A DNA stretch of 64,000 bases from Candidatus Aminicenantales bacterium (GTDB lineage: Bacteria; Acidobacteriota; Aminicenantia; Aminicenantales; UBA4085): contig JBEKTZ010000003.1 of the NCBI GenBank assembly GCA_049515535.1, positions 186,001 to 250,000 of the forward strand, given 5' to 3'. Below, piece after piece: positions 5,504 to 42,568 of this stretch (positions within the stretch are counted from its first letter, which is position 1; each line of letters starts with the position of its first letter). The translations under genes were made by a program, and so were the position numbers. The notes below the pieces were generated by a model, which ran no database searches, was not told the origin of the DNA, and was given only the letters and a program-made list of their open reading frames with translations.

Positions 5504-5566
5504 GTTAAGGGACGAGCCTTCGCGGCGGAAGTGGACCCCCGGGTAAAGCCCGGGGCCCCGGCCGCC
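5504..5566 (-). repeat. Dispersed palindromic element, short form (63 bp), copy A
   Basis: Near-identical to 17413-17475 and 35927-35989; GC hairpin cccggg-cttta-cccggg. Confidence 0.95.
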
Positions 5567-5579
5567 GTCGAGCGGCGAT

Positions 5580-6713
5580 TCAGCCGGCCAAAGCGAATCT
5601 CGCGATCAAACCGCCTTTCCCGACCGCCCATCCGGCTTTTCCCGACTTGGAAAAACTGACGCTGTGGAAACCGGCCGGCCCCGCGATCGGATTCCACGTT
5701 CTTCCCATATCCAGGGAATAATCCGATCCCGAAGGGCCGACCGCGACGGCGAGCGGGGGCGTGGTTTTGGGGACGAACGCGACGCATTCCCGGAAGCCCG
5801 CCGGCGGCTTGGACGAGGTCAATTCCCATGTTCGGCCGCCGTCGGTCGAGAGGGCCGCGTTTTTCTCCCGCGCCGCTTCATCTTTATAATCGCCCCCGGC
5901 GATGATGCCGTTTTTTCGATCGAGAAAAGCGACGGAAAACGCCCCGAACGACGCTTGGCCGCTGAGCAGGGGAGACGGAGCAGCCTGCCAGGTTTTTCCT
6001 TTATCCGCGGAATGCATGACGCGCGCGACCGGGCCTCCGGTGCAAAACCAGGCCTCGCTCGGACGCATGACGAACAGACATGTGCCGCCGGCGGCGAACG
6101 CCCCTTCTCCTTGCCGCGCCTCGGGACGGTTTTCAAAGGGAACCGGCTCCCACGTCGTTCCGCCGTTGGCGGTATAAATGAGAAAGAACCGTCCGTCCAT
6201 CGGATCGCCGACGGCCAGCCCGTTCTTCTCGTCGAAAAAGGCGATGGCGTCGAGAAAGATCCCCGGGGCGTCGTTGTGATAGCGCTCCGTCCATGTCGTT
6301 CCGCCGTCCGTCGTCTTGAAGATTTTCGCCGGACGACCCACGCCCATGACGCAGGCCGTCTCCGCGCTGAAGGCCTCGACGTCGCGGAAGTCCGTCGTTT
6401 CCGCGCCGGGAACCGCGCGGCTCGTCCACGTCTCGCCGCCGTCCGTCGTCCGCAGGATCGTTCCCTTGCCGCCGCCGGCCCAAGCGGTTTTATCGTCGAC
6501 CGCGGAAACGCCCCGCAGGCTCGCTTCCGTTCCGCTCCTTTGGACCCGCCAGGAGATCGGCGCGCGCTGATCGGCCGCTCTTTGGCCTAAGAAAGAATAG
6601 CCGGGCCAGGAGATGCCGATGAGGCAGGCAATACCCGCCATCATCGGGAGGCCGGAGCGAAGCCGTCGGGCCAGGGCTTGAGTCACCGAAACGTTCATGG
6701 CGCAGTTTTTCAT
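5580..6713 (-). CDS. Secreted YCF48/BNR (Asp-box) beta-propeller protein
   Basis: Repeated TxDGGxTW Asp-boxes; N-terminal hydrophobic segment; start codon uncertain. Confidence 0.8.
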   Translation of the reverse strand: MKNCAMNVSVTQALARRLRSGLPMMAGIACLIGISWPGYSFLGQRAADQRAPISWRVQRSGTEASLRGVSAVDDKTAWAGGGKGTILRTTDGGETWTSRAVPGAETTDFRDVEAFSAETACVMGVGRPAKIFKTTDGGTTWTERYHNDAPGIFLDAIAFFDEKNGLAVGDPMDGRFFLIYTANGGTTWEPVPFENRPEARQGEGAFAAGGTCLFVMRPSEAWFCTGGPVARVMHSADKGKTWQAAPSPLLSGQASFGAFSVAFLDRKNGIIAGGDYKDEAAREKNAALSTDGGRTWELTSSKPPAGFRECVAFVPKTTPPLAVAVGPSGSDYSLDMGRTWNPIAGPAGFHSVSFSKSGKAGWAVGKGGLIARFALAG

Positions 6714-6826
6714 GGTGGGAATTGTACATGACTCCGCGCCGGAGCGAAAGCCGGCGTCGATGGCCTCTCCACAGACTCGCGAATTTGTGTTAAATTTAGG
6801 AAACGACAGGTCATGGGTAAGGAGAG

Positions 6827-9772
6827 ATGCGCATGAAGAAATCGAACGCCGGGATCGCCGTTTGTCTTTTAGGGATTTTTATCGGGCCGTGTTTCGGGGC
6901 CGTCAGTCAGGCCGCGCCGGCCGACAAGCTGAAATTCGAGGTCCGGCCGACGATCTTCTTCATCGAAGAAAAAGGGGCGCTCAAGCAGAAGCTGGATATC
7001 GCCGTCGACAACCCCGGCCCCGCGATATCCGCCCAATTGGAGATCAAGCTTCCCAAAAAAACGCTGACGTTTACGCTCGAGAAGATCGCGGCGGGCAAAT
7101 CCGTCATCCTCGTCTTCATTCCGGAAGTCCAGCAGGCGTCGAAAACCGGCTTCGTCCTGAAAGCCGGGAAGACCACCCTTAAGGCCGATGTCGCGCTTTC
7201 ACCCCAACGGAAATGGACCCTTTATCTCCTGCCCCATTCCCACAACGACATCGGCTACACGGATCTCCAGACGCGCGTGACGAAAAACCACCTCGAGTAC
7301 CTCGACGCGGTCATCGATTTCTGCCGCGCCACGAACGATTATCCCGACGAGGCCAAGTTCCGCTGGAATATCGAAGTTTCCTGGGCCCTTCAGGCTTACC
7401 TCAAAAATAGGCCCCCCGACAAGGTCGCGGAGCTCGTGGCCCTTCTCAAGTCCGGGCGCGTCGAGCTTTCGGGCTGGTATGTCAATCAATCGGACCTTTT
7501 CTCTCACGAGGAGCTCATCCGCGCGGCGCTCGTCGCCAAAACGCTCAGCCGGACCTACGGCTTTCCTTTGCAGTGCGCGATGAACAACGACGTCACGGGC
7601 TTCAGCTGGGCGGCGCCTCAAGTCCTCAGCCAGATCGGCGTCCGGTATTTCACGACCGGCATCAACGAGACGCGCTCGCGGGCGCCGCTCCGCCGCCCCA
7701 ACCCGTTCTATTGGCAGGCGCAGGACGGGAGCAAGATCCTCCACTGGAACGGCGAGCATTACCTGTTCGCCAACTACGACCTGCTTCTCCACGAAAGCAT
7801 TGACAAGAGCCAGCCCCAGGTCGCGGACTATTTGACCAAGCTGCAGAAGCGCGGCGATTTTCCCTATGACCTGATCGCCTTTCACATCAGCGGCTACGTC
7901 ACCGACAACTGCCCGCCGAAGAAAGAGCTGGCCGATCGCGTCCGCGAATGGAACGGCCATTGGGCTTACCCGAAGCTGCGGCTGGCGACCATGAGCGAAT
8001 TCTTCGGCGCGTTCGAAAAGAAATACGCGAAGGCCGTCCCGACCTACAAGCTCGGCTGGCCGGACTACTGGACGGACGGCGTCGCGTCCACGGCTTTCGA
8101 GACGGGACTGGACCGGCTCGCCCACAACGAGCTCCTTTCCGCGGAGAAGATGGCCGTCGCGGCCAGGCTCGCCGACAAAAATTACGCGTTTCCGGCCCGG
8201 GAGATCGACGAGGCGTATTTTCAGACGATGTTCTACGACGAACACACCTGGGGAGGCTGGAATTCGATCGACGACCCCGAATCCGAGTTTGCCCGCGGGC
8301 AGTGGGCCCTCAAATCGGCCTTCGCCTATAACGCCCGCGAGATCGCCCGGACCACTCTCGACCGCGGCTTGCAGGCGCTCGCGAAAAATATCTCGACGCC
8401 GGAGACCTATGCCCTCGCGGTTTTCAACCCGTTGTCCTGGGAACGGACGGACATCGTGAAGGCCGTCCTGCCCCAGGCCGTTCAGGAAAAGAAGGGCGCG
8501 TTCAAGCTCATCGACAAAAGAAAAGGCCTGGAGACCGCGTTTCAGATTGTGGATAAAAGCCAGATCATGTTCCTCGCGGAAGCCGTCCCCTCGATCGGAT
8601 ATGCCGTCTATGCGATCGTTCCGGACGCGGCCCCGACGCCGGTCGCGCCCAAAACGGAGAGAGCCGGGAACGTGATCGAAAACCGTTTTTACAAAGTCAC
8701 CGCGGACCCGGTCACGGGAGGCCTTTCGAGCGTCGTCGATAAGGAAACCGGCCGGGAGCTCGTCGATGCCAAAGCGCGGCAGATGCTGAATCAATACGTA
8801 TATGAAAATCCCGAGGGAGGCCGCAAAGCGGTGGACAACATGGACCGGCGCGCCCAATTCACCCGCGTCAGCCCGGTGACGGCGGCGCCCGCGGCCGGGA
8901 TGACCGGTCCCGTGGCCTCGAGCCTCATCCTCCGGTCGAAGGCGAAACCCTGCCCGGAGATCCAGCAGGAGGTCGTCCTTTACGAGAACGTCAAGCGCAT
9001 CGATATCGTCAACCGGCTCAAGAAGGACGAAACCTACGAGCCCGAGGCCCTCTATTTCGCTTTTCCCTTCCATGTGGAAGGGGGAAAATTCCGGTTCGAG
9101 ATCGCGGACGGCACGATGAGCCCGGAAACGGAACAGCTTCCGGGAACGACAAGGGACTGGCAGGCGATCCAGCATTGGGTCGAGATCGCCGGCCCGAAGC
9201 AGAGCGTCGTCTGGTCGCCCATCGAGGCGCCGCTCGTGGAGTTCGGCGACATCAACACCGGGAAATGGCTGAAGAAGCTCGACCTCACGAACACCTCGCT
9301 CTATTCCTACGCGATGAACAATTACTGGATGACGAATTTCAAGGCCGGCCAGGGCGGCGCGTTCGTCTTCCGTTACGCGATCACGAGCCGGAGCGGCGGG
9401 GCCGACCTTCTCCAGTCGTCGCGGTTCGGCTGGGAAGTCCATACGCCGTTCGCGGCCGCCTGGCTGCCCGAAAAAAACAAGGGCTCGCTGCCCGAGCCGG
9501 CCGCGAGCTTTTTCAGCGTGGACAAGCCCAACGTCATCATCCAGGCCGTCAAACAGGCCGAGGACGGCGACGGGATCGTGGTCAGGCTTAGGGAGATCGC
9601 GGGGATTGAAGCGCAGGTGAAGATCGCGAGCCCGCTTTTTAAATCTGACACGGTCACCTACACGGCCACGGATATCGGCGAGGGGCCGGCGAACGCCAAT
9701 ACCGTCATTCCCCGGTCCATTTATGTGACGGTCAAGCCGTTCGCCATCCAGACGGTCAGGATCAAGGAATAA
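6827..9772 (+). CDS. Glycoside hydrolase family 38 (alpha-mannosidase-like), secreted
   Basis: HSHNDIGY Zn motif, NNDVTG nucleophile region, DEHTWG, C-terminal VKQAEDGDGIVVRLRE; signal peptide. Confidence 0.85.
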   Translation: MRMKKSNAGIAVCLLGIFIGPCFGAVSQAAPADKLKFEVRPTIFFIEEKGALKQKLDIAVDNPGPAISAQLEIKLPKKTLTFTLEKIAAGKSVILVFIPEVQQASKTGFVLKAGKTTLKADVALSPQRKWTLYLLPHSHNDIGYTDLQTRVTKNHLEYLDAVIDFCRATNDYPDEAKFRWNIEVSWALQAYLKNRPPDKVAELVALLKSGRVELSGWYVNQSDLFSHEELIRAALVAKTLSRTYGFPLQCAMNNDVTGFSWAAPQVLSQIGVRYFTTGINETRSRAPLRRPNPFYWQAQDGSKILHWNGEHYLFANYDLLLHESIDKSQPQVADYLTKLQKRGDFPYDLIAFHISGYVTDNCPPKKELADRVREWNGHWAYPKLRLATMSEFFGAFEKKYAKAVPTYKLGWPDYWTDGVASTAFETGLDRLAHNELLSAEKMAVAARLADKNYAFPAREIDEAYFQTMFYDEHTWGGWNSIDDPESEFARGQWALKSAFAYNAREIARTTLDRGLQALAKNISTPETYALAVFNPLSWERTDIVKAVLPQAVQEKKGAFKLIDKRKGLETAFQIVDKSQIMFLAEAVPSIGYAVYAIVPDAAPTPVAPKTERAGNVIENRFYKVTADPVTGGLSSVVDKETGRELVDAKARQMLNQYVYENPEGGRKAVDNMDRRAQFTRVSPVTAAPAAGMTGPVASSLILRSKAKPCPEIQQEVVLYENVKRIDIVNRLKKDETYEPEALYFAFPFHVEGGKFRFEIADGTMSPETEQLPGTTRDWQAIQHWVEIAGPKQSVVWSPIEAPLVEFGDINTGKWLKKLDLTNTSLYSYAMNNYWMTNFKAGQGGAFVFRYAITSRSGGADLLQSSRFGWEVHTPFAAAWLPEKNKGSLPEPAASFFSVDKPNVIIQAVKQAEDGDGIVVRLREIAGIEAQVKIASPLFKSDTVTYTATDIGEGPANANTVIPRSIYVTVKPFAIQTVRIKE

Positions 9773-9819
9773 AAAAAATCCCCCCGTCCTCCCTTATCAA
9801 GAGGAAGGCGCGGGGGGAT
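9771..9819. terminator. Hairpin between convergent genes, probable intrinsic terminator (U-tract on minus strand)
   Basis: atccccccg...cggggggat with adjacent A8. Confidence 0.55.
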
Positions 9820-9836
9820 GTGACGTTCGGTCGACC

Positions 9837-10769
9837 TTACTTCCCTTTTCTGAGATAAATGTCCCCGTTCATGTTCTTGAACTGGAACTCGGGCCCGCCG
9901 CCGTTGATCGCGCCGAGCACCGTTCGATCGAAACTGATCCTGAATTTTCCGCCTTCTTTGGTCTTATTTTGCTCGACTTTTTGAGGGGCCTGTTTCAAGG
10001 TGATGTCGAAATCGCTGAAAACCTCTCCCATGTCCGATTTGATCTTCAGGTTCGCCTTGATGTCGGCCGGGAACGTGACGTCGATGTCGCCGTTCAATGT
10101 ATTGAACGACATCGGCTTGTCCGGGGTCACCTTGGCCATGGTCACCGTCACGTCGCCGTTGAGCGCGGAGACCACCACGGTCCCGGAAACGTCTTTCAGG
10201 GTCACGTCGCCGTTGAGGCATTCCACTTCGATCTCGCCGTTCACGCCGCCGACCCAGATATCGCCGTTGTTGTTGGAATTAAGCTTGAGCGAAGAGGCGA
10301 ACGGGACCTTGATGTTCAGGTCCACCGTTTTTCTGAAGGATTCGACCTGGATGTCCACCTTGTTGTTGTCCTCTTCCACGGACAGGCCGGAGTTGTCGAT
10401 GGGGATTTGCTTCATTCCCGTGGTCTTGTCCTTCTTGTCCTTCTCCTTGTCTTTATCCTTGTCCGGCCCGAGCCAGGCGATTTTAGGAGCGGTAGGCCTT
10501 GCAGGACGGGGTATCCTTAGGTCGCCTTCTTTTTCTTCTCTTTCTTCTCCGATCTGTTTCTCCCGGGCCTTGGCTTCGATCTGGATGTCCTTGCCCTCGT
10601 AGCCCGTGATTTTGATCCCGCCCATAATGACGTGGACGTTGACGATCGCCGGCTTGGCCGGATTGCTCAAGGGGACGACGATCTGGTCCGGTTTCGCGTC
10701 CTGGGCGGCGGCGAAAACGGCCGCGGCCATCAGGATCGCCATTCCGAGGTAAAGGTGTTTGTTGTTCAT
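9837..10769 (-). CDS. DUF4097 (adhesin-like beta-helix) protein
   Basis: Repeated NGDI/NGDV turns; signal peptide. Confidence 0.8.
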   Translation of the reverse strand: MNNKHLYLGMAILMAAAVFAAAQDAKPDQIVVPLSNPAKPAIVNVHVIMGGIKITGYEGKDIQIEAKAREKQIGEEREEKEGDLRIPRPARPTAPKIAWLGPDKDKDKEKDKKDKTTGMKQIPIDNSGLSVEEDNNKVDIQVESFRKTVDLNIKVPFASSLKLNSNNNGDIWVGGVNGEIEVECLNGDVTLKDVSGTVVVSALNGDVTVTMAKVTPDKPMSFNTLNGDIDVTFPADIKANLKIKSDMGEVFSDFDITLKQAPQKVEQNKTKEGGKFRISFDRTVLGAINGGGPEFQFKNMNGDIYLRKGK

Positions 10770-10779
10770 GGTTTTCTCC

Positions 10780-11655
10780 TTAATTGAATTTTTTGATGAG
10801 GATGTCGCCGTTCAGCGTGTCGCAGGTGATCTGTGGTCCGCCCTTCCCGACGCGGACCTGGCTGAACTGATCGCGCTTATAGATGAATTTCCCTTTTTGG
10901 CTTTCTTTGACGGCGGGCGGCGGCGGGAGCGTTTTGACTTCGAAATCCGAATAGGCCTTGCCGTTGAACGTCTTCATTTTGAAATCGGCGGACAGCCCGT
11001 CGTGAAAGGAAAGGACCACATCTCCGTTGACCGTCCGGAACGAGCAGTTCGCGCCGGGGTTTTTCAGGAAGCCGACGTTCACTTTTCCGTTGACCGTGTG
11101 AGCCCCGCCCGCTCCCGCGATGTCCTCCAGCGTGACCTTGCCGTTGACGTTGGACACGTCGAAATCGCCCTCGACGCCTTTCACCGTAATGTCGCCCTCG
11201 TTGACGGTTTTGAGCGTCAGGCCCGTTTTGCGCGGAACCTTCAGGGTGAAGTCGAAGACGACTTCGTATCCCAGGTCGCGTCCGTTGAATCCCTTGCCGT
11301 TCTCGCACCGGCAGCGGAACGGCCCGTCGATGTAGATATCGATGCCGCCGCTTTCCATGGTGATATCGAGCTTGACGTCCTGCCTGGCCTTCTGGATCTT
11401 GTCCTCCGTTTTCGCCCGGATGAGCTTATGGGCGACGAGCTCGACATCGTTTCCGTCGGTCCCTTGGACGTCGATCGAGCCGAAGATGTTGTCGATCTGG
11501 AGCGTTTTCGGCTTGGCGGGATCCTGGAACTTCAGGGTCTTCCGCATGTCCTCTTTTTCCTCGAACTTGTATTTGTCATTGGAGGGCGATGGGCCGGCCA
11601 GGGCCGGACCTAAAAGCGCGGCGCCGAGCACGGCGACAAGAACGGTTCTCTTCAT
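10780..11655 (-). CDS. DUF4097 beta-helix protein
   Basis: Repeated TVNG turns; signal peptide. Confidence 0.8.
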   Translation of the reverse strand: MKRTVLVAVLGAALLGPALAGPSPSNDKYKFEEKEDMRKTLKFQDPAKPKTLQIDNIFGSIDVQGTDGNDVELVAHKLIRAKTEDKIQKARQDVKLDITMESGGIDIYIDGPFRCRCENGKGFNGRDLGYEVVFDFTLKVPRKTGLTLKTVNEGDITVKGVEGDFDVSNVNGKVTLEDIAGAGGAHTVNGKVNVGFLKNPGANCSFRTVNGDVVLSFHDGLSADFKMKTFNGKAYSDFEVKTLPPPPAVKESQKGKFIYKRDQFSQVRVGKGGPQITCDTLNGDILIKKFN

Positions 11656-11664
11656 GGGATTCTC

Positions 11665-12474
11665 CTAAAAACCGAGCTGCTGGATCCCGAGCTCGGCCTT
11701 TTTCTTGATCTCGGGCCTCAGCTTTTCGCTCCCGATGAGGGCTTTGAGCGCGTCCACCGCCCGGCGTTCCCGGATATCGACGAGAAGATCGATGAGCGCG
11801 GACTGGACAATCGGCGATTCCTGGCGGGAGAGCGAGCGGAGGACGCCATCCTTGACTTCGGGCTTGGACGAGAAGAGATAGAGCGCGTCCACGGCGGCCA
11901 GCCTGACGTTGATGTTCGGGTCGCCGTCCAGGGTTTGGAGGAGCGCATCGAGAGTAGTTTTACCGGGTTCTTTGAGCAGGGACGTGTAACTCAGGCCGCG
12001 GAGCCGCTCCGACGGCGAGGGCTGTTGGAGCAGGGAAACGGCGGTGATCCTGTGCATATCATCGACATCTTTTTGGAGCTTCGCGAAGCGGGCTCCCGAG
12101 CCGCTCAGAACGAACCCGCCAGCGAGGCCAACGATGATCAAGACGGCGGCCGCGGCGATGGGGAAGGCGGGCCGCAGCCTCCATATCCGACCCAGGGAAA
12201 AAGGGAATCCCGGTTTAGACGGAACCTTTCCTTTTTTCGCTTCGAGGCCGTCTTTGTAAGCTTCGAGCATCGTGTAGAACTTATCACGCACGGCGATCGA
12301 GGGCTGCTCCTGGGGGAGCACGCCGAGTTTCGTCCAAATCTCGCCCAGGCCGCGCAATTCCTCGCCGCAGGCGGCGCAGGAGGCGATGTGGGCGTCGAAT
12401 TCGCCCCTCGTTTCAGACTTCAAATCGCCGCTCAAAAAATCCGGAAATTTTCCCCTGGCATTTTCACACTTCAT
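11665..12474 (-). CDS. Anti-sigma factor (zf-HC2, TM helix, HEAT repeats)
   Basis: HIASCAAC; one TM segment; HEAT-like DPNINVRLAAVDAL. Confidence 0.85.
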   Translation of the reverse strand: MKCENARGKFPDFLSGDLKSETRGEFDAHIASCAACGEELRGLGEIWTKLGVLPQEQPSIAVRDKFYTMLEAYKDGLEAKKGKVPSKPGFPFSLGRIWRLRPAFPIAAAAVLIIVGLAGGFVLSGSGARFAKLQKDVDDMHRITAVSLLQQPSPSERLRGLSYTSLLKEPGKTTLDALLQTLDGDPNINVRLAAVDALYLFSSKPEVKDGVLRSLSRQESPIVQSALIDLLVDIRERRAVDALKALIGSEKLRPEIKKKAELGIQQLGF

Positions 12475-13021
12475 GGCGGCAAGCCTCCCCGGTCAATTGA
12501 TGATAAATGTCGCCCAGCTCTTGGACGGCCCTGTGGACGAGGCCCTTGACCGTCCCGACGGGACAGTCGAGGAGCTCGGCGATCTCCCGGTATTTCAGGT
12601 TCTGGAAGCGGCTGAGGACGAGGATTTCCTGCTTCTTTGGAGAGAGCCTCGCCAGCGCCTTCGCGAGCAGGGCGGCTTCCTGCGCCCGGGCGGCCTTTTC
12701 GTCAGGGAGGGGTTCGAGGCTGTGGACCTCGTCGAACTGCTCCTCGAGGGGGACCGTCTCCTTCCGTTTTCTCAGAAAATCGATATGGGCGTTCCTGGCG
12801 ATCTTGTACAACCAGACGGCGAACCGGTCTTCACCCAGGTAGGTCGCTCGATATTTGAGGATCCGGATGAAGACGTCCTGGACCAAATCCTCGCTGATGG
12901 GGCGATTTCCCGTCAGGCGGAGGAAGAAATTGAATAGGGCGACGTGATGGCGCTCGAACAGGATGGCGAGCTTCTCGACCCGGCCGTCCCGAACGTCTTC
13001 CATGAGCTGGTTGTCGTTCAT
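12464..13021 (-). CDS. ECF sigma-70 factor
   Basis: EDLVQDVF, WLYKIARN, region 4 YREIAELLDCPVGTVK. Confidence 0.95.
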   Translation of the reverse strand: MNDNQLMEDVRDGRVEKLAILFERHHVALFNFFLRLTGNRPISEDLVQDVFIRILKYRATYLGEDRFAVWLYKIARNAHIDFLRKRKETVPLEEQFDEVHSLEPLPDEKAARAQEAALLAKALARLSPKKQEILVLSRFQNLKYREIAELLDCPVGTVKGLVHRAVQELGDIYHQLTGEACRHEV

Positions 13022-13029
13022 CGCAGATA

Positions 13030-13057
13030 TAGACTCGAATTTCTTAAAAAGGTTACA
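13030..13057 (-). promoter_or_regulatory. Putative ECF-type autoregulatory promoter
   Basis: Minus strand TGTAACC-16 nt-GTCTA, 8 nt before the sigma ATG. Confidence 0.55.
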
Positions 13058-13121
13058 AGAACTTTTATCACGAAATCAGGGCCGGTTTCTACTTTTTTGG
13101 ACGGACAGGGGCTTCCACAAG

Positions 13122-13150
13122 TTGACTTGATTTTCCGCGGGTGATATAAA
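13122..13150 (+). promoter_or_regulatory. sigma70 promoter of purM
   Basis: TTGACT-17 nt-TATAAA, followed by SD AAGGAG. Confidence 0.6.
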
Positions 13151-13176
13151 AACCGTGAAATTCAAGGAGATGAGCA

Positions 13177-14178
13177 ATGAGCCCCCTGACCTATAGAAAA
13201 ACCGGCGTCAATATCGACGAGGCCGACGAATTCATCAAGAAAATCAAGCCCCTGGCTCGATCGACGTCGCGGCCCGAGGTTTTGGGCGGGATCGGCGGGT
13301 TCAGCGCCCTCTTCCAGCCGCGGCTCAAAGGAATGAAAAATCCCGTTCTCGTCTCCTCGACGGACGGCGTCGGGACGAAGCTGATGATCGCCGACCTCCA
13401 GGGAAAATATGACACGGTGGGCATCGATCTTGTGGCCATGAGCGTGGACGACATCGTCGTCACGGGCGCCGAGCCGCTTTTTTTCCTGGACTACATCGCT
13501 TGCGGCAGGCTGGATAAGGACATGCTGGCGGAGGTCATGAAAGGCATCGCCAAAGGCTGCCGCGAGGCGAATTGCGCCCTGGTCGGCGGGGAGACGGCCG
13601 AGCTTCCGGGCCTCTATGGGAAGAACCAGTGGGATCTGGCGGGTTTCTGCGTGGGGCTGGTCGACAAGAGCGCGATTATCGACGGCCGTTCGTGCCGAAA
13701 AGGAGACAAGATCATCGGCCTGGCGTCGAGCGGCCTCCATAGCAACGGCTTTTCGCTCGTCCGCGGCGCATTCACGGAAAAGGAGATGAGAGGAAGACTG
13801 GGGGTCGAGCTGCTCAAACCAACCCGGATTTATACGCGGGCGATTTTGGCCGTCATGAAAAAGATCAGGATCAAGGCCCTGGCCCATATCACCGGCGGCG
13901 GCTTTTACGACAACATTCCCCGCGTCATCCCGAAGGGCCTGACCGTGAGGATCCAGGAGGGCTTGTGGCCGATCCCGCCGATCTTCCGCCTGATCCAGGA
14001 GCGCGGAGAGATCGGCGAGCCCGAGATGTTTCGGACGCTCAACATGGGGATCGGCATGGTCGCGGTCGTCGGGGCGAAGGACGCCCGGAAAACGATCGCG
14101 CTCTTTCAGAAGCTCGGGCACAAAGCGTGGGTCATCGGCGAGCTTTTTCCCGGCCCGCACGGCGTGATCATTTCATAA
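13177..14178 (+). CDS. purM: Phosphoribosylformylglycinamidine cyclo-ligase (AIR synthetase)
   Basis: STDGVGTK, GAEPLFFLDY, GGETAELP, SSGLHSNGFS, AHITGGG, TLNMGIG. Confidence 0.97.
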   Translation: MSPLTYRKTGVNIDEADEFIKKIKPLARSTSRPEVLGGIGGFSALFQPRLKGMKNPVLVSSTDGVGTKLMIADLQGKYDTVGIDLVAMSVDDIVVTGAEPLFFLDYIACGRLDKDMLAEVMKGIAKGCREANCALVGGETAELPGLYGKNQWDLAGFCVGLVDKSAIIDGRSCRKGDKIIGLASSGLHSNGFSLVRGAFTEKEMRGRLGVELLKPTRIYTRAILAVMKKIRIKALAHITGGGFYDNIPRVIPKGLTVRIQEGLWPIPPIFRLIQERGEIGEPEMFRTLNMGIGMVAVVGAKDARKTIALFQKLGHKAWVIGELFPGPHGVIIS

Positions 14179-14188
14179 GCTTCTTCCA

Positions 14189-14290
14189 GTCAGGGGACGA
14201 GCCTTCGACTTGCTACTCGCCCGTGGCTTATATCAACGGGCGAGTACGGCGGAAATGGACCCCCGGGCAAAGCCCGGGGCCCCGTCCGCC
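14189..14290 (-). mobile_element. Dispersed palindromic element, long form (102 bp), copy B, inserted in the 3' end of the racemase gene
   Basis: Matches 42467-42568; removal restores ...PDLFDWKKLMK*. Confidence 0.85.
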
Positions 14291-15301
14291 GTCGAAGAGG
14301 TCCGGTTTCCATTCATAGCGGGCCAGCGCGTCCGCCGTTTCCGGCGATATCTTCCGCAGCCATGGGCCGAGCGCGTCGATTTTTTGGCGGCCGATCTCGA
14401 CCATCGAGACGGCCTTTGCCCGGACCATGGAAGCCGCGAATCGATTCGCGTATTTCGAAGAGATCAAAACGTCCGTCATTTTCGAGTTCGGGTTCAGGAA
14501 GGTGATTGACGGACTCCGCCGGCCCTCGAACGCTTTTTTCCAACCATCGAGGGAATACCCGAAATGCGTGCAGTTCAAACTGACATAGAGGGGGGCTTTC
14601 GGGTCCTTGACGCGCGCCAGCGCTTCCTCGACGTAGGATTCGATGAGCAGCCCCGTGTCCTCGCCGGCGGGATCTTTCTCGATATAGCTCGCCAGCTCCG
14701 GGCAGGCCTGGACGACGATCCGTTCTTCCTTGACGCCTCGCTCCAAAAGCCTTTTTTTATGCTCCCCTTCGGCGATGGTCGTCTCCGTGCCGAGAATAAT
14801 GACGGTCGCGCCGGGCTCCTTTTTGAACCCCAGAGCGATGAGATCAACGCCCGGCTCGACGATACCCAACAAGGGAATCTTCGCCGTTTTGAAAAAAGGC
14901 GTTTCCTCCAAGAGGACGGAGAGGGTGTTGCAGCCGACGAGGACGATATCCGGGCGGCAGGTTCGGTCGAGGGCGCGAAGGGCGCTGTCGAAAACGGCGA
15001 TCTTTTCTTCTCGGCTTTTCAGGCTGTTGTAGCCGCTGTCGTTCGAGAAGAGCGCGTTGAAAAAGACGAGGTTCACGCTTTCGAAGATCTTCGCCTCTTT
15101 CAGGCGTGCCGCGGCTTCGGCAATGATCGACAGGCCGCCGAGCCCCGAATCCGTGACCGCGATCGTCACCTCCCGTTTGGCGAAGAACGCCTCGAGAGCG
15201 GCGGCTTTTTGCGCCCCGGCGAGGGACCCCGCCGGAGGCGGAAAAAGTCCCAGGAAAATCCCCGTGATCGAAAGAACAATCGCCGGCTTGATTTGCCTCA
15301 C
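14228..15301 (-). CDS. Asp/Glu racemase family protein with signal peptide; last ~20 aa derive from the repeat
   Basis: DSGLGGL, VGCNT and NCTHF two-Cys racemase motifs. Confidence 0.8.
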   Translation of the reverse strand: MRQIKPAIVLSITGIFLGLFPPPAGSLAGAQKAAALEAFFAKREVTIAVTDSGLGGLSIIAEAAARLKEAKIFESVNLVFFNALFSNDSGYNSLKSREEKIAVFDSALRALDRTCRPDIVLVGCNTLSVLLEETPFFKTAKIPLLGIVEPGVDLIALGFKKEPGATVIILGTETTIAEGEHKKRLLERGVKEERIVVQACPELASYIEKDPAGEDTGLLIESYVEEALARVKDPKAPLYVSLNCTHFGYSLDGWKKAFEGRRSPSITFLNPNSKMTDVLISSKYANRFAASMVRAKAVSMVEIGRQKIDALGPWLRKISPETADALARYEWKPDLFDGGRGPGLCPGVHFRRTRPLI

Positions 15302-15393
15302 CGTTTCTCTCCGTTCGGCGGCCTTATTTTACCGCGTGTTGCTATTATAAAACATAACATATTATACTTGAGCGCCAAAACGGAGGCGGTGTC

Positions 15394-15588
15394 ATGAAAA
15401 AGCCGATCGTCATCCTGCGCCTGGCTCCGGTTTATGATCCCGCCGCCATAGAGAAGATGATCCGAGAAGGGCTCGACGAGATGGGCCTGGCGTCCCGGGT
15501 GAAAGGCCGCGTGACGATCAAGCCCAACGCGGTCTCAGAATCGATCTCATATACGATTCTTATATCTGCCTCTTCTTTTCCTGGATGA
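15394..15588 (+). pseudogene. Truncated DUF362-family N-terminal fragment
   Basis: Good SD; YDPAAIEKMIREGL...VTIKPN motif, then abrupt loss of coding character near 15535. Confidence 0.65.
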
Positions 15589-15618
15589 GAAGGCTGGTCA
15601 AAGGAAGGCTTTAAGACC

Positions 15619-17262
15619 ATGGACGGACGACTGATCATCGGCAGCGAACGGAGAGAAACGAAAGAGAAGCTCGTCTCGAAGAGCCCGGCGACACTCGAGC
15701 CGGTCGGCGAGGTTTCGCTGGCGACGGCGGAAGACTGCCGCGATGCGGTTTCGGCGGCGCGGCGGGCCTTCCCGCTATGGCGGGACTTGCCGTCCGCCGC
15801 AAAGAAAAAGATCCTCCGGCGGGCCAAGGCGATCCTCCTCAAACGGAGCGACGAGGCGGCCCGGCTCATATCCATGGAAAAAGGATCGCCCGTCATGGAA
15901 TCGCTGTCCGTCGAAGTCCTGAGTAGCCTGGAGATCCTCGATTATTACGGCCATAATCTCGACAAGGCCGTGGCCCCGAAAAAAATGAAGCCCCATGTGG
16001 CCCTGTTTTCTCACAAGAAATGCGCTTTCCGCTTCCAGCCCCTGGGGCCGACGCTCGTCATCTCGCCCTGGAACTTTCCGTTCCTGATCCCGTTTTGCGA
16101 TATTGTCAGCGCTTTGTCGGCGGGGAACACGGTGGTCCTCAGGCCGTCCACGTCCGCGCCGCTCATCGCCCTGCTCATCGGGGAAATCTTCGTCGAGGCG
16201 GGGATTCCGGCCGGGGTCGTCAACGTCGTCAATTGCCGGACGGCCCAGGCCGAAGAGATGATCACGAACCCGGAGATCCCGACCGTCATGTTCACCGGGA
16301 GCGTGGACATCGGCAAGCGGGTCATGGAACTGGCCAGCCGCAATCTGACGAACGTCGTTCTGGAACTGGGCGGAAAAGACCCGATGATCGTCTGCGCGGA
16401 TGCCGACCTGGAGCGGGCGGCGCGCGGCGCGGTCTGGGCGGCTTTCATGAACTGCGGGCAGAGCTGCGCCTCGGTGGAACGGGTCTATGTCGCTAGGGAG
16501 ATCGAGAAAGAGTTCACGGACAGGGTCGTTTCGCTGGCACGCGGGATCAGAACCGGAAATCCCCTGGAGCCCGGCGTGGACATGGGACCGATGACGACGC
16601 TCGGCCAACTCAAGGTCGTCGAGGACCATCTTCGGGATGCCCGGGAAAAAGGCGCCGCGGTTTTATGCGGCGGAGAAAAAGTCCCCGGGCTTCCCGGATA
16701 TTTCATCACCCCGGCTGTGCTTTCGGGCGTCAACCATGCCATGAAAATCATGACCGAAGAAACGTTCGGGCCGACGCTGCCCATCATGCCTTTTTCGAGT
16801 CTCGACGAGGCCGTCGCGCTGGCCAACGATTGCCGTTACGGCTTGACGGCCTCGCTCTGGACGCGCGACAGGAAAACAGCCCGCCGGCTGGCAGAGAGCC
16901 TCGAAGCCGGCACCGTGACGATCAACGATCACATGTTCTCTTTCACCGAGCCGAAGGCGATCTGGGGCGGCATCAAACTGACCGGCATGGGCCGGTCGCA
17001 CGGGCCTTATGGGCTTCTTCATCTCCAGAACATCAAGTTCGTCGGAGCGGATTTCTCCCGGAAAAAAGGCCTGCTGTGGTGGTATCCCTATCGCGATCCG
17101 AAACCTCAAGTCATTCAAAAGGCGCTGAACCTTCTGCATCAGGACCGGGCCGGGAAAAAGCTCAAGGCCGCCTTCGGCCTTCTTCCGACGTTGCCGATGG
17201 TGCGCGCGGGGGTTACGCTCAAAAGCATGGGAAAGATCGCTGCGCGCTTGTTCCGGAGATAA
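15619..17262 (+). CDS. NAD(P)-dependent aldehyde dehydrogenase
   Basis: ISPWNFP, FTGS, LELGGKDP, NCGQSC, EETFGP. Confidence 0.95.
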   Translation: MDGRLIIGSERRETKEKLVSKSPATLEPVGEVSLATAEDCRDAVSAARRAFPLWRDLPSAAKKKILRRAKAILLKRSDEAARLISMEKGSPVMESLSVEVLSSLEILDYYGHNLDKAVAPKKMKPHVALFSHKKCAFRFQPLGPTLVISPWNFPFLIPFCDIVSALSAGNTVVLRPSTSAPLIALLIGEIFVEAGIPAGVVNVVNCRTAQAEEMITNPEIPTVMFTGSVDIGKRVMELASRNLTNVVLELGGKDPMIVCADADLERAARGAVWAAFMNCGQSCASVERVYVAREIEKEFTDRVVSLARGIRTGNPLEPGVDMGPMTTLGQLKVVEDHLRDAREKGAAVLCGGEKVPGLPGYFITPAVLSGVNHAMKIMTEETFGPTLPIMPFSSLDEAVALANDCRYGLTASLWTRDRKTARRLAESLEAGTVTINDHMFSFTEPKAIWGGIKLTGMGRSHGPYGLLHLQNIKFVGADFSRKKGLLWWYPYRDPKPQVIQKALNLLHQDRAGKKLKAAFGLLPTLPMVRAGVTLKSMGKIAARLFRR

Positions 17263-17412
17263 AACGGAAATATAGGTTGACAAGCTTTTTCGGCCGGAGA
17301 TAAACTCATCATCTGGATCAAGGACATGGGCCTCGACGGCCGGATGGGCAAGAACGGAATTTCCAAAACGGGCGTTCTTCTCTTTTTTTCCGGCCAACGT
17401 CCGATTTTCCAC

Positions 17413-17475
17413 GGCGGACGGGGCTCCGGGCTTTGCTCGGGGGTCCACTTCCGCCGCGAAGGCTCGTCCCTTGAC
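17413..17475 (+). repeat. Dispersed palindromic element, short form, copy C, abutting the kinase RBS
   Basis: Same sequence family; followed directly by AGGAGG-ACA-ATG. Confidence 0.95.
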
Positions 17476-17484
17476 AGGAGGACA

Positions 17485-32102: not shown

Positions 32103-32159
32103 GAGTCTGTTGTTTAATTATCCATTGCCGGCCTCAGGACGTCAAGCTTATTCGCCGAC

Positions 32160-32173
32160 GCTCGTCCCTTGAC
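32160..32173 (+). repeat. Isolated right-end fragment of the dispersed element
   Basis: GCTCGTCCCTTGAC is identical to the last 14 nt of copies C and E; intergenic. Confidence 0.6.
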
Positions 32174-35798: not shown

Positions 35799-35926
35799 TA
35801 ATTAAAGTGACGCGCAACGGTGTCCCTTAAGTGCCCTTCAAGGTCTTGATCGATTTTCCTCTATCGCTTCCGTTTGACTTTTAAGCGCGTCTCGTATAGT
35901 AAAAAGTCAGTCATGATAATCTCAAC

Positions 35927-35989
35927 GGCGGACGGGGCCCCGGGCTTTGCCCGGGAGTCCACTTCCGCCGCGAAAGCTCGTCTCTTAAC
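35927..35989 (+). repeat. Dispersed palindromic element, short form, copy D, in the GH116 leader
   Basis: Same family; ends 12 nt before ATG 36002. Confidence 0.95.
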
Positions 35990-36001: not shown

Positions 36002-38707
36002 ATGCCTATGCCCGCATTAAGATCGTTTTGGAATCATCGCGCGGTCGTGTTGGTTTTATCCGCGGCGCTTGTCATCGTTTCCGTGGGAATGGAGCCCGCG
36101 CAGGCGGCGAACAAAGATTCTTCGAAACTCGTCTATACGTCGCAAGAGCTTTACCGGCTCGGCAGACCGCGCGTCTTCGAAGGCCAGGCCCTCAAGGAAA
36201 TCGCCTTTCCGCTCGGCGGCATCGGCACGGGCACCGTCTCTCTTGGCGGGCGGGGAAATCTCCGCGACTGGGAGATCTTCAACCGGCCGGGCAAAGGCGT
36301 CAACCTGCCGTTCACGTTCTTCGCCCTCCATTTCGAGCAGGAAGGCCGGAAGCCCTTGGTCCGGGTGCTCGAAGGCGCCTTGACGCCGCCGTTCACGGGC
36401 GCGGACGGGTATCGCAAGGGCGACGTGCCCGGGCTGCCGCGAATGGAAAAAGCGCGCTTTCACGGCGAATATCCGTTCGCCTGGATCGACATGGAGGACA
36501 GCGACCTTCCGCTCCATGTCACGATGGAGGCTTTCAACCCCTTCATCCCGCTCAACCCCGAGGAATCCGGGATCCCGGCGTGTGTCATCCGGTTCCGCAT
36601 CAAAAACCTCAGCCGCCTGCCGGCCAAGATCACCGTGGCCGGCTCGATCCTGAATCCGATCGGATTCGAAGGCGGCATCGAGGGCGTCGACCACGAGAAA
36701 TTCGGCCAAAACCTGAACGAGATCCGCAAGGGTCAGGCCCTCTCCGGCCTGTTCATGTCCTCGCGGAAAGTGAAGCCGGACGCGGCCGCGTTCGGGACGA
36801 TGGCCCTGGCCACGCCGTGGAAGAACATCACGTATCTCTCCCATTGGGTGCGCGGGGATTGGTGGGACGATCTCCAGATTTTCTGGGACGATTTCGCCGC
36901 CGACGGCCGATTGAAGAACCTCGAAGACAAGGACCCTTCACCCGACCGGCGGACCGACATCGGGACGCTGGGCCTCGAAGCGACCATCGAGCCGTTCGGC
37001 GAGGTCACGCTCCCGTTCTTCCTGTCCTGGAACTTTCCAAACTTCATGGACTACTTCGACATTGTCCGGGAGCAGCGGGGGCAGATGTTCCGGAACCATT
37101 ACGCGGAACGCTTCGCCGACGCCTGGCAATCAGCGGAATATCTTTTTCAGAACCTCCCCCGGCTCGAAAGAGACAGCCGGCTGTTCCACGAGACATTTTT
37201 CTCTTCGACCCTTCCGCCGTATGTCCTCGACGCCGTCTCCAGCCAGGCCTCGATCACCCGGACCATGACCTGTTTCTGGCTGGCCGGGGGGAAATTTTTC
37301 GCCTTCGAGGGCTGCAACGACAAGAGCGGCTGCTGCCCGCTCAACTGCGGCCATGTCTGGAACTACGAGCAGTCGATGGCCTTCCTCTTCCCGAGTCTCG
37401 AGCGGTTCATGCGGGAGGTGGATTTTCTGAACAACACCAAGGACAACGGCGAAATGGTCTTCCGCACGGCCCTTCCGCTCGGAAGCGGCGTGCTCTGGAA
37501 GTTCCGGCCTGCCGCGGACGGAACGTTGGGGAAAATCATCAATCTCTACCGCGACTGGCAGTTGTCGGGCGATATGGAATTCCTGAAGAAGATATGGCCC
37601 AAGGCCAAGAAAGCCCTGGAATACACGTGGCTCTCCTGGGACGCGGACAAGGACGGCCTGATCGAGGGCGAGCAGCACAATACCTATGACATCGAGTTTT
37701 ACGGGCCGAACAGCATGATCGGAACGTTTTATCTGGGCGCGCTCCTGGCCGGGTCGAAGATGGCCGACGCCGTCGGCGACGCGGAAGCCGCGAACGAGTA
37801 CCGGGACATCTTCGAGAAAGGCAAGGCGAAGTTCAACGGCCTTCTGTGGAACGGCGAGTATTATGTCCAAAAGTACGACCAGGTCATGGAAAAGAAATAT
37901 CAATACGGCGACGGCTGCCTGTCCGACCAGATGCTCGGCCAATGGCTGTCGATGGTCGCCGGGCTGGGCCGGTTCCTTCCGGAGGACCGCCTGAAAACGA
38001 CGCTGGGCTCGATCTTCAAGTACAATTTCATGCCCGATTTCCGGAATTTCTCGAACGCCCAGCGCTCGTATGCCCTGAACGACGAGCGGGGCCTTTTGCT
38101 CTGCACCTGGCCCAAGGGCGGGCGGCCGCCGCTGCCGTTCGTCTACTCGGACGAGGTCTGGACCGGCATCGAATACCACGTCGCTTCGCACCTGATGTAC
38201 GAGGGCCTCGTCGACGAAGGCTTGACCGTCGTTAAAGCCGTCCGCGACCGGTATGACGGCCGGAAGCGCAACCCGTGGGACGAGATCGAATGCGGCCATC
38301 ACTACGCGCGCGCCATGTCGTCGTGGGGCGTCCTTCTCGCTCTCTCCGGCTATTCCTATTCCGGCACGGCCATGAGCCTCGAGTTTGCGCCGAAGATCTA
38401 TCCGGACAATTTCCGGACGTTCTGGAGCGCGGGAAGCGGCTGGGGCGGCTACGCGCAGAAAGAAGAGAAGGGGAAAGCCGAGAAAATCGAGCTGACGGTC
38501 GCGTCGGGAGAACTAGCGCTTCGGGAATTCTGTTTCATGCCGACGCCCACGCTCCAGGCGAAAAAGCTCGTCGCGCTGGCGGGAGAGGCCGGGGGCAAAC
38601 CCTTCAAGCCCTCGTTCAAACAGGAGGGGAGCAAGATCAAGGTGACCTGGGCCAAGCCGCTCGTTCTCAGGGCCGGCGAGAAGCTCGTCTTCGAAGCGGG
38701 GTTCTGA
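36002..38707 (+). CDS. Glycoside hydrolase family 116
   Basis: PLGGIGTG, WEIFN, FEGC, HNTYD, YSDEVWTG, ECGHHYARAM. Confidence 0.92.
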   Translation: MPMPALRSFWNHRAVVLVLSAALVIVSVGMEPAQAANKDSSKLVYTSQELYRLGRPRVFEGQALKEIAFPLGGIGTGTVSLGGRGNLRDWEIFNRPGKGVNLPFTFFALHFEQEGRKPLVRVLEGALTPPFTGADGYRKGDVPGLPRMEKARFHGEYPFAWIDMEDSDLPLHVTMEAFNPFIPLNPEESGIPACVIRFRIKNLSRLPAKITVAGSILNPIGFEGGIEGVDHEKFGQNLNEIRKGQALSGLFMSSRKVKPDAAAFGTMALATPWKNITYLSHWVRGDWWDDLQIFWDDFAADGRLKNLEDKDPSPDRRTDIGTLGLEATIEPFGEVTLPFFLSWNFPNFMDYFDIVREQRGQMFRNHYAERFADAWQSAEYLFQNLPRLERDSRLFHETFFSSTLPPYVLDAVSSQASITRTMTCFWLAGGKFFAFEGCNDKSGCCPLNCGHVWNYEQSMAFLFPSLERFMREVDFLNNTKDNGEMVFRTALPLGSGVLWKFRPAADGTLGKIINLYRDWQLSGDMEFLKKIWPKAKKALEYTWLSWDADKDGLIEGEQHNTYDIEFYGPNSMIGTFYLGALLAGSKMADAVGDAEAANEYRDIFEKGKAKFNGLLWNGEYYVQKYDQVMEKKYQYGDGCLSDQMLGQWLSMVAGLGRFLPEDRLKTTLGSIFKYNFMPDFRNFSNAQRSYALNDERGLLLCTWPKGGRPPLPFVYSDEVWTGIEYHVASHLMYEGLVDEGLTVVKAVRDRYDGRKRNPWDEIECGHHYARAMSSWGVLLALSGYSYSGTAMSLEFAPKIYPDNFRTFWSAGSGWGGYAQKEEKGKAEKIELTVASGELALREFCFMPTPTLQAKKLVALAGEAGGKPFKPSFKQEGSKIKVTWAKPLVLRAGEKLVFEAGF

Positions 38708-41397: not shown

Positions 41398-41425
41398 GTT
41401 ATTATTATGAGCGTTCATCCGCGCC

Positions 41426-41454
41426 TTGACAAGCGGTCAATGGTCACATATAGA
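41426..41454 (+). promoter_or_regulatory. sigma70 promoter
   Basis: TTGACA-17 nt-TATAGA; small inverted repeat ttgac-N5-gtcaa over the -35. Confidence 0.55.
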
Positions 41455-41475
41455 ACAAAGTGTGGCTCGTCCGCG

Positions 41476-42444
41476 ATGAACAAACGGATCATCCGAATCG
41501 CGCTGGCCCTGCTCGTGACGGGGGCAATCCTTTTTGTATTCTTTCGAAAAACCGGCTGGGGAGAAATCCGGGAGGCGTTCGCCTCTATCCCCTTGGGGGC
41601 GGTCGGCCTGTACATGGCCATTTCTCTCCTGGGGGCGGCCGTGCGGTCCGTCCGCTACCGCGTTCTGCTTTCCGGCCGCATCGGCCGGGGCGAGCTTTTT
41701 TTAGTTACTTTAGTCCAGAATTTTTCGGTCGACCTTCTGCCGGCCCGCTCGGCCTCCCTGGTTTTCTACACTTATCTCACCCGCCGGCGGGGCATCCTTC
41801 TCGAAGAGGGGGCCTCGAGCTTCGTGATCGCCGTCTTTTACGACGCCCTGGCCTTAGGCCTGATGCTGGGAGCCGCCGCTTTCGTTCTCATCAAATCGCT
41901 GGGCGCGGATGTCCCCGCGGCGTCGATCGCCTGGGGGTTGGTCGTGATCGTGGCCGTTTCTTTACTGGTCATCATCCTGGCCAAGCCCTTGGCGGGCTGG
42001 GCCAGGAAAATTTCCCGGAGGATGCAGCTTGTTAAAATCGCGGCCGCTTTCGCGACCGTCGAGGATTATTTTTCAAGGCACGGGGCGGCCGGCGAAAAGG
42101 TCAAGCTGCTCGGCCTGAGTTTTATAATCAAGCTGGTCAAATACGTTTCGTTGTATGTCCTCTTCGTCGGCATATCGGGCGCGATCGTCTCCCCGCGGTC
42201 TCTGTCCTTGTTCAGTTTCGGCGTCGCCGGAGCCGAGCTCTCGTCCTTCCTTCCGATCCAGGGATTGGCTGGCCTGGGAACTTGGGAGGCGGCCTTCGCC
42301 CTGGTCGCGGGAAAAATCGGCCTAGCGCTCAAAAGCCCGTTCCTGACGGCACTGGTTATACACCTGGTCACCCAGGTGTGGGAGTACGGGCTGGGCCTCG
42401 GCGCCCTGTGGATCCTGTCCGTCCGGGCCCGCGGCCAGGAATAG
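41476..42444 (+). CDS. Lysylphosphatidylglycerol synthase TM-domain (YbhN/AglD2 flippase-like) protein
   Basis: RSVRYRVLL, LLPAR, LPIQGLAGLGTWEA; multiple TM segments. Confidence 0.8.
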   Translation: MNKRIIRIALALLVTGAILFVFFRKTGWGEIREAFASIPLGAVGLYMAISLLGAAVRSVRYRVLLSGRIGRGELFLVTLVQNFSVDLLPARSASLVFYTYLTRRRGILLEEGASSFVIAVFYDALALGLMLGAAAFVLIKSLGADVPAASIAWGLVVIVAVSLLVIILAKPLAGWARKISRRMQLVKIAAAFATVEDYFSRHGAAGEKVKLLGLSFIIKLVKYVSLYVLFVGISGAIVSPRSLSLFSFGVAGAELSSFLPIQGLAGLGTWEAAFALVAGKIGLALKSPFLTALVIHLVTQVWEYGLGLGALWILSVRARGQE

Positions 42445-42466
42445 CCGGCGGAGCACTTATTTCAAC

Positions 42467-42568
42467 GGCGGCCGGGGCCCCGGGCTTTACCCGGGGGTCC
42501 ACTTCCGCCGTACTCGCCCGTGGATATAAGCCACGGGCGAGCGGCGAGCCGAAGGCTCGTCCCTTGAC
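42467..42568 (+). mobile_element. Dispersed palindromic element, long form (102 bp), copy E
   Basis: Three hairpins; removal restores ...AMLATVVLK* on the minus strand. Confidence 0.85.

Follow-up and report, generated by a model that had tools for sequence, protein, structure and literature searches.

The question raised by this locus is what kind of sequence is repeated, as palindromic units of 63 or 102 nt, at five places between genes or at gene ends, and by what means it came there. The locus is a stretch of 64,000 nt (G000:C3:186001-250000; hereafter the window) in a metagenome-assembled genome (MAG) of Aminicenantes, G000, which measures 3.45 Mb in 32 contigs and is 94% complete. Other G numbers (G003–G048) denote the other Aminicenantes genomes compared, among which G004, G008, G010, G014 and G018 were the relatives used for synteny. 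A sequence-only reading of the window had proposed a PATE/REP-like element (PATE, palindrome-associated transposable element; REP, repetitive extragenic palindrome) that is moved in trans. The PATE part of this proposal stood, through copy number, mobility, target and the lack of both target duplication and terminal inverted repeats (TIRs), while the REP part, with its REP-associated tyrosine transposase (RAYT), came out weaker. The element is best filed as a new PATE-like family, of a kind already known, whose Y1 (HUH) chemistry, single-stranded intermediate and mobilising enzyme we infer.

Copies, ends and targets of the element in G000

The top strand of the element is the one that reads GGCGG...TTGAC. 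With at most three mismatches, its 44-nt left module was found 91 times in G000 (48 forward and 43 reverse), and a reversed control pattern gave no match. The count rose to 112 at up to six substitutions, and nhmmer returned 127 clusters at E ≤ 10, a few of which were weak. G000 holds 91 to about 120 copies of the element, which agreed with the high genome-wide copy number expected by the sequence-only reading. Gene calls based on open reading frames (ORFs) placed 67 of the 127 copies inside ORFs, which were largely over-extended or spurious in this GC-rich DNA.

Both ends were recognised in 85 copies, the full copies, on which the counts of lengths, targets and flanks are based. Their lengths were 63 nt (44 copies), 102 nt (39) and 103–104 nt (two). 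The 44-nt module is a three-tier imperfect hairpin with GGCGG/CCGCC as the outer tier and CCCCGGGC-TTT-GCCCGGGG as the inner one, the 19-nt right module carries CCCTTGAC at its 3′ end, and the optional 39-nt module forms a 12-bp hairpin and also completes a third hairpin. The left hairpin starts at base 1 and is the only one in the 63-nt form; in the 102-nt form, a hairpin ends 5 nt before the terminal TTGAC. TTGAC makes up the last five bases of most copies and CTTGAC the last six of 69 of the 85. The opening GGCGGMC... and the closing ...CCCTTGAC are not reverse complements, so that the element has no real TIRs, as had been noted from the window. The 102-nt form folded far better than shuffled sequences (z = -6.5 as DNA, -6.2 as RNA), and the copy at 17413, the sole 63-nt copy folded, did no better than shuffles as DNA (z = -0.75). 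Both length forms were present in each 5′ sequence subfamily, which indicated that the 39-nt module was gained or lost repeatedly, and some copies in G000 consisted of the left module and the middle hairpin only.

The family is mobile and has inserted recently, since two of the window copies occupied sites that were empty in every relative compared. The site at 14189-14290, for which a 15-kb query found syntenic coding DNA in relatives and the convergent gene ends were aligned, was empty in four of four relatives (G008, G010, G014 and G004). On the minus strand the relatives read ...TTCGAG TGGAAG... (...L F E W K...) and continue without a break to the stop, whereas G000 reads ...TTCGAC, the 102-nt element and TGGAAGAAGCTTATGAAATGA. 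The last six codons (WKKLMK*) of ORF 14228..15301 were replaced by element-encoded residues, and the old tail lies just downstream of the element. The site at 35927-35989 was empty in five of five relatives (G014, G008, G004, G010 and G018), with synteny on both sides. There, a conserved TTGAC.TTT...TATAG.AAAAA... runs into AGGGGAGGG...ATG in the relatives, and in G000 the element stands between ATCTCAAC and TCAGGGGAGGG. G014 and G008 are rich in copies elsewhere, so these are true empty sites and not genomes free of the family. The sequence-only reading had named two outcomes that would speak against it, sites always filled in relatives and a match to a known Rfam family. Neither was observed: the sites were empty as described, and the only Rfam match in the whole window at gathering thresholds was a tRNA.

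The other three window sites were uninformative. The 5504 site was rejected as an orthologous comparison, its match in G014 being a paralogous IS91-like copy. Synteny at the 17413 site was lost downstream in G014 and G008, and at the 42467 site the upstream gene was matched in G018 only and nothing was matched downstream. When contigs of four public runs were compared with window positions 5000-18500, no bridge across a copy was found among the contigs listed, and no joint that skips exactly one copy was found among the joints listed. All contigs listed around the three copies examined stopped within or beside the copy.

The target lay on the left side only. The left flank of the 85 full copies read TCGAC in 33, TCCAC in 18 and TCAAC in seven (58 together), and T never occurred at position -3. 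Four of the positions -5 to -1 carried 1.3–1.7 bits and position -3 carried 0.4 bits, whereas none of the 14 bases of the right flank exceeded 0.1 bit. This target-site logo, TCVAC on the left with no signal on the right, upheld the fixed one-sided target that the sequence-only reading had described. The same targets and ends recurred in 77 loci of other MAGs (TCGAC 24, TCCAC 16), and 13 of these loci escaped classification by a strict regular expression, most of them looking like minor variants on inspection. Within the family, no covariation was seen between element position 6 (A or C) and position -3 of the target (chi-square p = 0.88).

Nested copies gave the ends exactly. In three cases a 102-nt guest lies inside a 63-nt host (C2:350881-351017, C7:175411-175547 and C14:50731-50867). 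The host halts after its internal ...GGGGGTCCAC (GTCCAC), the guest spans GGCGG to CCCTTGAC, and the host resumes with TTCCGCCGCGAAGG... (TTCCGCCG) immediately after the last base of the guest. This fixed both ends as GGCGG...TTGAC, with no host base repeated. A dinucleotide other than AC on either side was present in 23 of the 85 full copies, and only one of these 23 had the same dinucleotide on both sides. No target is duplicated on insertion, and the 2-nt duplication of AC read from the five window copies was not borne out. Alternative end use was seen in four more composites, which consist of a guest and one host part (the right 27 nt of the host in three, the left 36 nt in one), as would result from a later move that pairs the inner end of one element with the outer end of the other. 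Element-internal TCCAC makes up about 120 of the roughly 25,700 TCGAC, TCCAC and TCAAC words on both strands of G000, and up to seven composites trace to insertions there, far above this share of sites, although the estimate is rough and the composites may share events.

The orientation of the copies followed base composition. On contigs of at least 20 kb, with local G>C measured over plus or minus 20 kb, the top strand coincided with the locally G-rich strand for 96 of the 125 copies (Fisher p = 1.4e-9, for copies that are not independent), and for 43 of 51 copies where |skew| was above 0.02. The bias was kept when the copies were split by the strand of the nearest large ORF (plus, 20:7 versus 1:22; minus, 26:10 versus 11:28). 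No link was seen between orientation and the balance of gene strands nearby (p = 0.59), and both strands of G000 carried the target words at equal frequency. As the leading strand is generally G-rich, the top strand was taken as the lagging-strand template.

The mobilising enzyme and rival explanations

The reading that we prefer, at a probability of roughly 0.68, is that the element is a non-autonomous family of the PATE kind with IS200/IS605-like behaviour, moved in trans by a Y1 (HUH) transposase, for which an IS200-type TnpA is the best candidate. The top strand folds into a long imperfect hairpin, to which the 102-nt form adds two further hairpins. Most likely, a Y1 (HUH) tyrosine transposase acting in trans would cut the element out of DNA that is single-stranded at the replication fork and paste it 3′ of TCVAC on the lagging-strand template; nothing is duplicated, and nested copies show the use of alternative ends. 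The enzyme may be an IS200-type TnpA like that of G000, an IS200 with a hairpin and a terminal TTGAC similar to those of the element. A preference for the lagging-strand template is described for IS608, ISDra2 and other IS200/IS605 members in the cited part of that literature (PMC5027513).

Two Y1 genes were found in G000, one in an IS200 and the other encoding a RAYT/TIRYT-like protein of 341 aa. The IS200 (C9:107983-108345) is a single copy and has a 97% similar counterpart in G014. Both directly follow a flanking TTGAC and end in GCCCCGCGGCTTGCCGCGGGG-TCA-TTGAC. The right end thus consists of a hairpin, 3 nt and TTGAC, and the hairpin CCCCGCGGCTTGCCGCGGGG resembles CCCCGGGCTTTGCCCGGGG of the element. 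In 80 metagenomic relatives of this IS200 (L178–L257) the hairpin recurred at the ends of most loci, even at 64–68% identity, and the right end was again hairpin, 3 nt and TTGAC, TTCAC, TTTAC or TTAAC (TTNAC).

Several findings weigh against the preferred reading. The IS200 of G000 is interrupted by an in-frame TAA, a codon that reads TAC in the G014 copy, and the element lacks the guide stretch CTTTGCAG-N-ATG of the IS200 clade. No element modules were present in the 80 metagenomic IS200 loci and no element copies in nine Y1 loci of six genomes (G000 and five relatives). In G000, no transposase gene was found between a left and a right end, and no left end without a partner had a right end within 0.3–5 kb. 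A TnpA(Y1), RAYT or IS110 gene bounded by the same ends had been suggested as a check; no Y1 gene so bounded turned up in G000, in the nine Y1 loci or in the 80 IS200 loci. IS200 was detected in 2 of 8 genomes carrying the element versus 12 of 53 that do not carry it, which gave no association, although insertion sequences are often lost from MAGs, and the high-copy genomes G008 and G010, both fragmented MAGs, showed no IS200. In the 102-nt form, the hairpin at the left end (CCCCGGGC/GCCCGGGG) does not resemble the one at the right end (GCGAGCC/GGCTCGT). Hairpin compensation among the copies of G000 was weak, with seven compensated cells (shuffle mean 2.1, maximum 7) and 80 broken ones. Finally, the G-rich strand is taken to be the lagging-strand template by the general GC-skew rule, in a MAG of 32 contigs.

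Two observations concern the IS200 clade in its own right. In a subset with GCAG-N-ATG before the left hairpin, N was complementary to the third target base, C going with TTGAC, A with (T/A)TTAC including TTTAC, and T with TTAAC; other guide variants of the clade go with TTTAG, TTCATG and TACAC targets. These form a tidy natural covariation series for guide-target pairing. The G000 copy (C9:107700-108500, minus strand) interrupts a transposase-like ORF (MNKLNREKQAQVV...), which may be IS1595-like, and its left flank reads TCAATTGAC.

A more radical form of the preferred reading, possible but clearly less probable, is that the 63-nt form is a complete single-strand transposon in which one hairpin serves as both ends, while the enzyme gene has different ends. 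The enzyme would then be, just as tentatively, either an HUH enzyme that is not yet recognised as a transposase or an IS200 TnpA of the TTGAC type that a similar-looking hairpin has recruited. Such an arrangement would explain both the absent parent element and the presence of near-identical copies across families of the same order.

A REP/REPIN-type repeat moved by the RAYT/TIRYT-like Y1 protein of G000 appears unlikely, although several facts favour it. The gene (C13:96204-97229) is the only intact Y1 gene found in G000, and its product (47 bits to Y1_Tnp, with a weak DnaA C-terminal match) scores 74.1 bits with the REP-associated tyrosine transposase model, slightly short of its cut-off of 80. 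A Y1 gene of this broad kind was present in all five element-bearing relatives searched, such an enzyme would also account for the strand bias, and the element is high-copy, hairpin-forming and mostly extragenic, like REPs. However, the gene lies between perfect inverted repeats of its own of about 27 bp (GGGGTCGCGTCTACACTTTGCACTTTT; GGGGTCGCGTCTACACTTTGCAC...; C13:96186-97260), an arrangement that matches the cited description of TIRYT (PMC6006769). The same repeat flanks the orthologues in G004, G014 and G018, and five small gene-less inverted doublets of it occur in G000 (Table 1). The gene therefore already has a cognate repeat family, and together they are a second, separate Y1-associated repeat system in this genome. 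No 63- or 102-nt copy was found within about 1.5 kb of this gene or of the Y1 genes of six relatives. Relatives of the protein occurred in 47 of the 61 genomes of the order, without association with the element, which occurred in 8 of the 61. The element also lacks the GT[AG]G tetranucleotide that marks the hairpin foot of REPs in the same cited source (PMC6006769).

Less probable again is that a Y2 HUH transposase moves the element as a miniature form derived from an IS91-type rolling-circle element. The one-sided target and the lack of duplication would suit it, the four partial composites look like products of reading past the end, one window copy abuts an IS91-like C-terminal remnant, and six Y2_Tnp matches were found in G000 versus 0 of 14 control genomes. 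These six nevertheless look like remnants: they are 78–85% alike where aligned, one has a stop inside, four are partial on the Pfam model, and the two ORFs inspected (161 and 242 aa) begin only at MTEGG.... No intact Y2 gene was found among the six matches, the N-terminal half not having been searched for as such. An element lies within 4 kb of just one of them, apparently by chance. The targets of IS91 are GTTC/CTTG, which differ from TCVAC, and the replication-linked orientation bias is documented, in the cited text, for Y1 elements (PMC5027513).

Insertion by an IS110-type enzyme (DEDD, guide-RNA directed), or another site-specific event with AC as a shared core, is improbable. G000 has two IS110-family genes and AC stands on both sides of most copies, but the right flank carries no information, the AC of the two sides did not covary (1 of 23) and no IS110 gene was seen beside a copy, the nearest listed copy on C1 being about 2.5 kb away. 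Least probable of all is a conserved structured RNA or regulatory DNA site held by selection and not mobile: two window copies stand directly upstream of ribosome-binding sites and the 102-nt form folds strongly both as DNA and as RNA, but this is contradicted by the empty orthologous sites, by copies that occur in either orientation to genes, within the end of a gene and within other copies, by the 17413 copy folding no better than shuffles as DNA, and by a permissive Rfam scan of one copy, in which the best sub-threshold match scored 21.1 versus 67.9 bits and no family reached a third of its threshold.

Window copies, variants and distribution

The window was searched with the 44-nt left and the 19-nt right module, mismatches being allowed and the chance level taken from shuffles (100 for the left module). 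The left module matched five times at up to two mismatches, with 0.00 expected, and the right module matched at the same five sites at up to two mismatches and at a sixth (32155-32173) with three, 0.07 matches being expected by chance. All five copies of the sequence-only reading were recovered on the strands it gave, three of 63 nt and two of 102 nt, and the extra module lay where it had been placed. The five left flanks (ctcgac, ttcgac, ttccac, ctcaac and ttcaac) fitted YTCNAC and every copy ended in AC. None of the Y1, TnpB-type, IS110 or Y2 matches of the whole-genome searches fell inside the window, in line with the earlier statement that it holds no transposase gene. The coordinates are listed in Table 1.

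Table 1. Element copies, their targets and parts, and related repeats (window positions, or contig and position in G000)
Feature	Position	Strand	Remark
Copy, 63-nt short form (44-nt left hairpin module + 19-nt right module)	5504..5566	-	13 nt past stop of minus-strand ORF 5580..6713
Left-flank target CTCGAC	5567..5572	-	flank of 5504-5566 copy
Copy, 102-nt long form	14189..14290	-	within 3′ end of minus-strand ORF 14228..15301
Left-flank target TTCGAC	14291..14296	-	relatives: TTCGAG, directly followed by TGGAAG
Copy, 63-nt short form	17413..17475	+	ends 1 nt before AGGAGG + ATG of large ORF starting near 17487
Left-flank target TTCCAC	17407..17412	+	
Copy, 63-nt short form	35927..35989	+	between promoter-like TTGACT...TATAGT and ribosome-binding site of ORF 36002..38707
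Left-flank target CTCAAC	35921..35926	+	
Copy, 102-nt long form	42467..42568	+	between convergent ORFs
Left module of this copy	42467-42510	+	
Extra 39-nt module of this copy	42511-42549	+	12-bp hairpin + half of third hairpin
Right module of this copy	42550-42568	+	
Left-flank target TTCAAC	42461..42466	+	
Possible worn solo right end CCGACGCTCGTCCCTTGAC	32155..32173	+	3 mismatches to right module; intergenic; uncertain
Gene-less doublet of TIRYT-like repeats, 95–125 nt	C4:3940		
Gene-less doublet of TIRYT-like repeats, 95–125 nt	C7:3722		
Gene-less doublet of TIRYT-like repeats, 95–125 nt	C11:18722		
Gene-less doublet of TIRYT-like repeats, 95–125 nt	C16:22259		
Gene-less doublet of TIRYT-like repeats, 95–125 nt	C18:7539		
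Diverged 77-nt variant	C1:88876-88981		
Diverged 77-nt variant	C10:21182-21292		
Diverged 77-nt variant	C10:26288-26418		
Diverged 77-nt variant	C10:35061-35137		

In the inner stem of the copy at 17413, C has changed to T at two places, and a G-T wobble pair remains at each. The first copy abuts, at its right end, an IS91-like remnant (5380-5503, minus strand) that is additional to the six Y2_Tnp matches of G000, the translation of which resembles the C-terminus of an IS91-type transposase (HLKLVFVAEKPPPS...EESVDYF*) and which aligns with a longer IS91-type C-terminal coding stretch in G014:C73. The promoter-like TTGACT ... TATAGT upstream of the fourth copy (35874-35902) is mostly preserved across six genomes that belong to five genera, its TTGAC core being invariant.

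A diverged 77-nt variant was observed at four loci in G000. It consists of the left module and a different middle hairpin and ends in ...GGGTGAGTG. Once it stands alone, after CCCTTGAC, and three times it is nested after base 12 of a 63-nt copy. Possibly this variant moves as a unit of its own and uses a different target.

The distribution of the element was followed in 61 genomes of the order, in 339 genomes of the class and, by an exact-pattern scan, in species-representative genomes. The eight carriers in the order, at up to three mismatches in the left module, were G000 with 91 copies, G014 with 67, G008 with 45, G010 with 15, G003 with seven, G048 with six, G029 with five and G024 with four. 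A 37-nt core, at the same tolerance, was found in 14 of the 339 class genomes, with more than 20 copies only in G000, G014, G008 and G010, and in none of the 93 class genomes outside the order. Identical 44-mers were shared between two families of the order. The exact-pattern scan gave the 77 loci mentioned above, nearly all in MAGs labelled Candidatus Aminicenantes or Aminicenantia. Single exact core copies were also seen in MAGs labelled Spirochaetes, Sedimentisphaerales and Eubacteriales (L093, L115 and L141), and two in one labelled Acidobacteria. The copies in the first three could be mis-binned Aminicenantes contigs or transfers.

Relation to known systems and significance

In the literature on miniature inverted-repeat transposable elements, repeats and transposases of Aminicenantes, no description of the 63/102-nt family was found, and the literature found on IS200 and PATEs dealt with other organisms only. 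PATEs were defined in Haloquadratum, in the cited passages, by the lack of TIRs, near-terminal palindromes, the lack of target duplication and a length too short to code (PMC3119063), and all four features were found in the element. The PATEs of Haloquadratum walsbyi include 52-bp single-palindrome 'terminal-only' forms that appear to move (Dyall-Smith et al., 2011; PMC3119063). The likeness extends, as far as these passages go, to the many homogeneous copies, the strain- or genome-specific insertions, a targeting sequence of 4–5 nt on the 5′ side and the tiny forms with a single palindrome. In contrast, the Haloquadratum PATEs can be traced there to IS605-type (IS1341/TnpB) elements that reside in the genome and share their ends (PMC3119063). 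For the present element, no parent sharing its ends was found, a search for a TnpB-type gene in G000 gave no match, the host is bacterial (Aminicenantia), and the end hairpins are unlike. Its hairpin and that of the resident IS200 (CCCCGGGCTTTGCCCGGGG versus CCCCGCGGCTTGCCGCGGGG) are similar and not the same.

The element resembles IS200/IS605 members in its insertion 3′ of a pentanucleotide ending in AC, the lack of duplication and the replication-linked orientation. Classical IS200/IS605 ends have matching hairpins; the element departs from them in that its left and right hairpins do not match and in that it has no cognate tnpA with the same ends. With the resident IS200 clade it shares a right end of hairpin, 3 nt and TTGAC and a GC-rich CCCCG..GGC/GCC..CGGGG hairpin. 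Unlike that clade, it has neither tnpA nor any of the left-end sequence, including CTTTGCAG-N-ATG, in which N pairs with the third base of the target; its cut site lies 11 nt from the hairpin instead of 18, and its target is TCVAC instead of TTGAC.

REPs, BIMEs and REPINs are presumed to be moved by a single-copy Y1 enzyme (RAYT, TnpA-REP). The element is like them in its high-copy extragenic hairpins, its modular mosaics and its occasional insertion in genes. Unlike REPs, it starts with GGCGG, without GTAG or GTGG before the hairpin, and has a defined 5-nt target and exact ends; and the repeat that flanks the RAYT/TIRYT-like gene of G000 is another one, unlike in a REPtron.

The general picture of IS200/IS605-type elements is unchanged by this family. 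It offers a clear natural case of single-strand-transposon behaviour in a very small element, from a phylum for which we know of no cultured model. It remodels gene ends, as with the last six codons of one gene in the window, and sits in the 5′ leader of another gene. As the contigs listed in the public runs stop at its copies, the family is likely a practical cause of fragmented Aminicenantes MAGs, and it is useful as a marker of strain history. If it is true that a single 63-nt hairpin suffices for a Y1 enzyme whose own gene has different ends, the element would be a handy minimal substrate for the study of end recognition.

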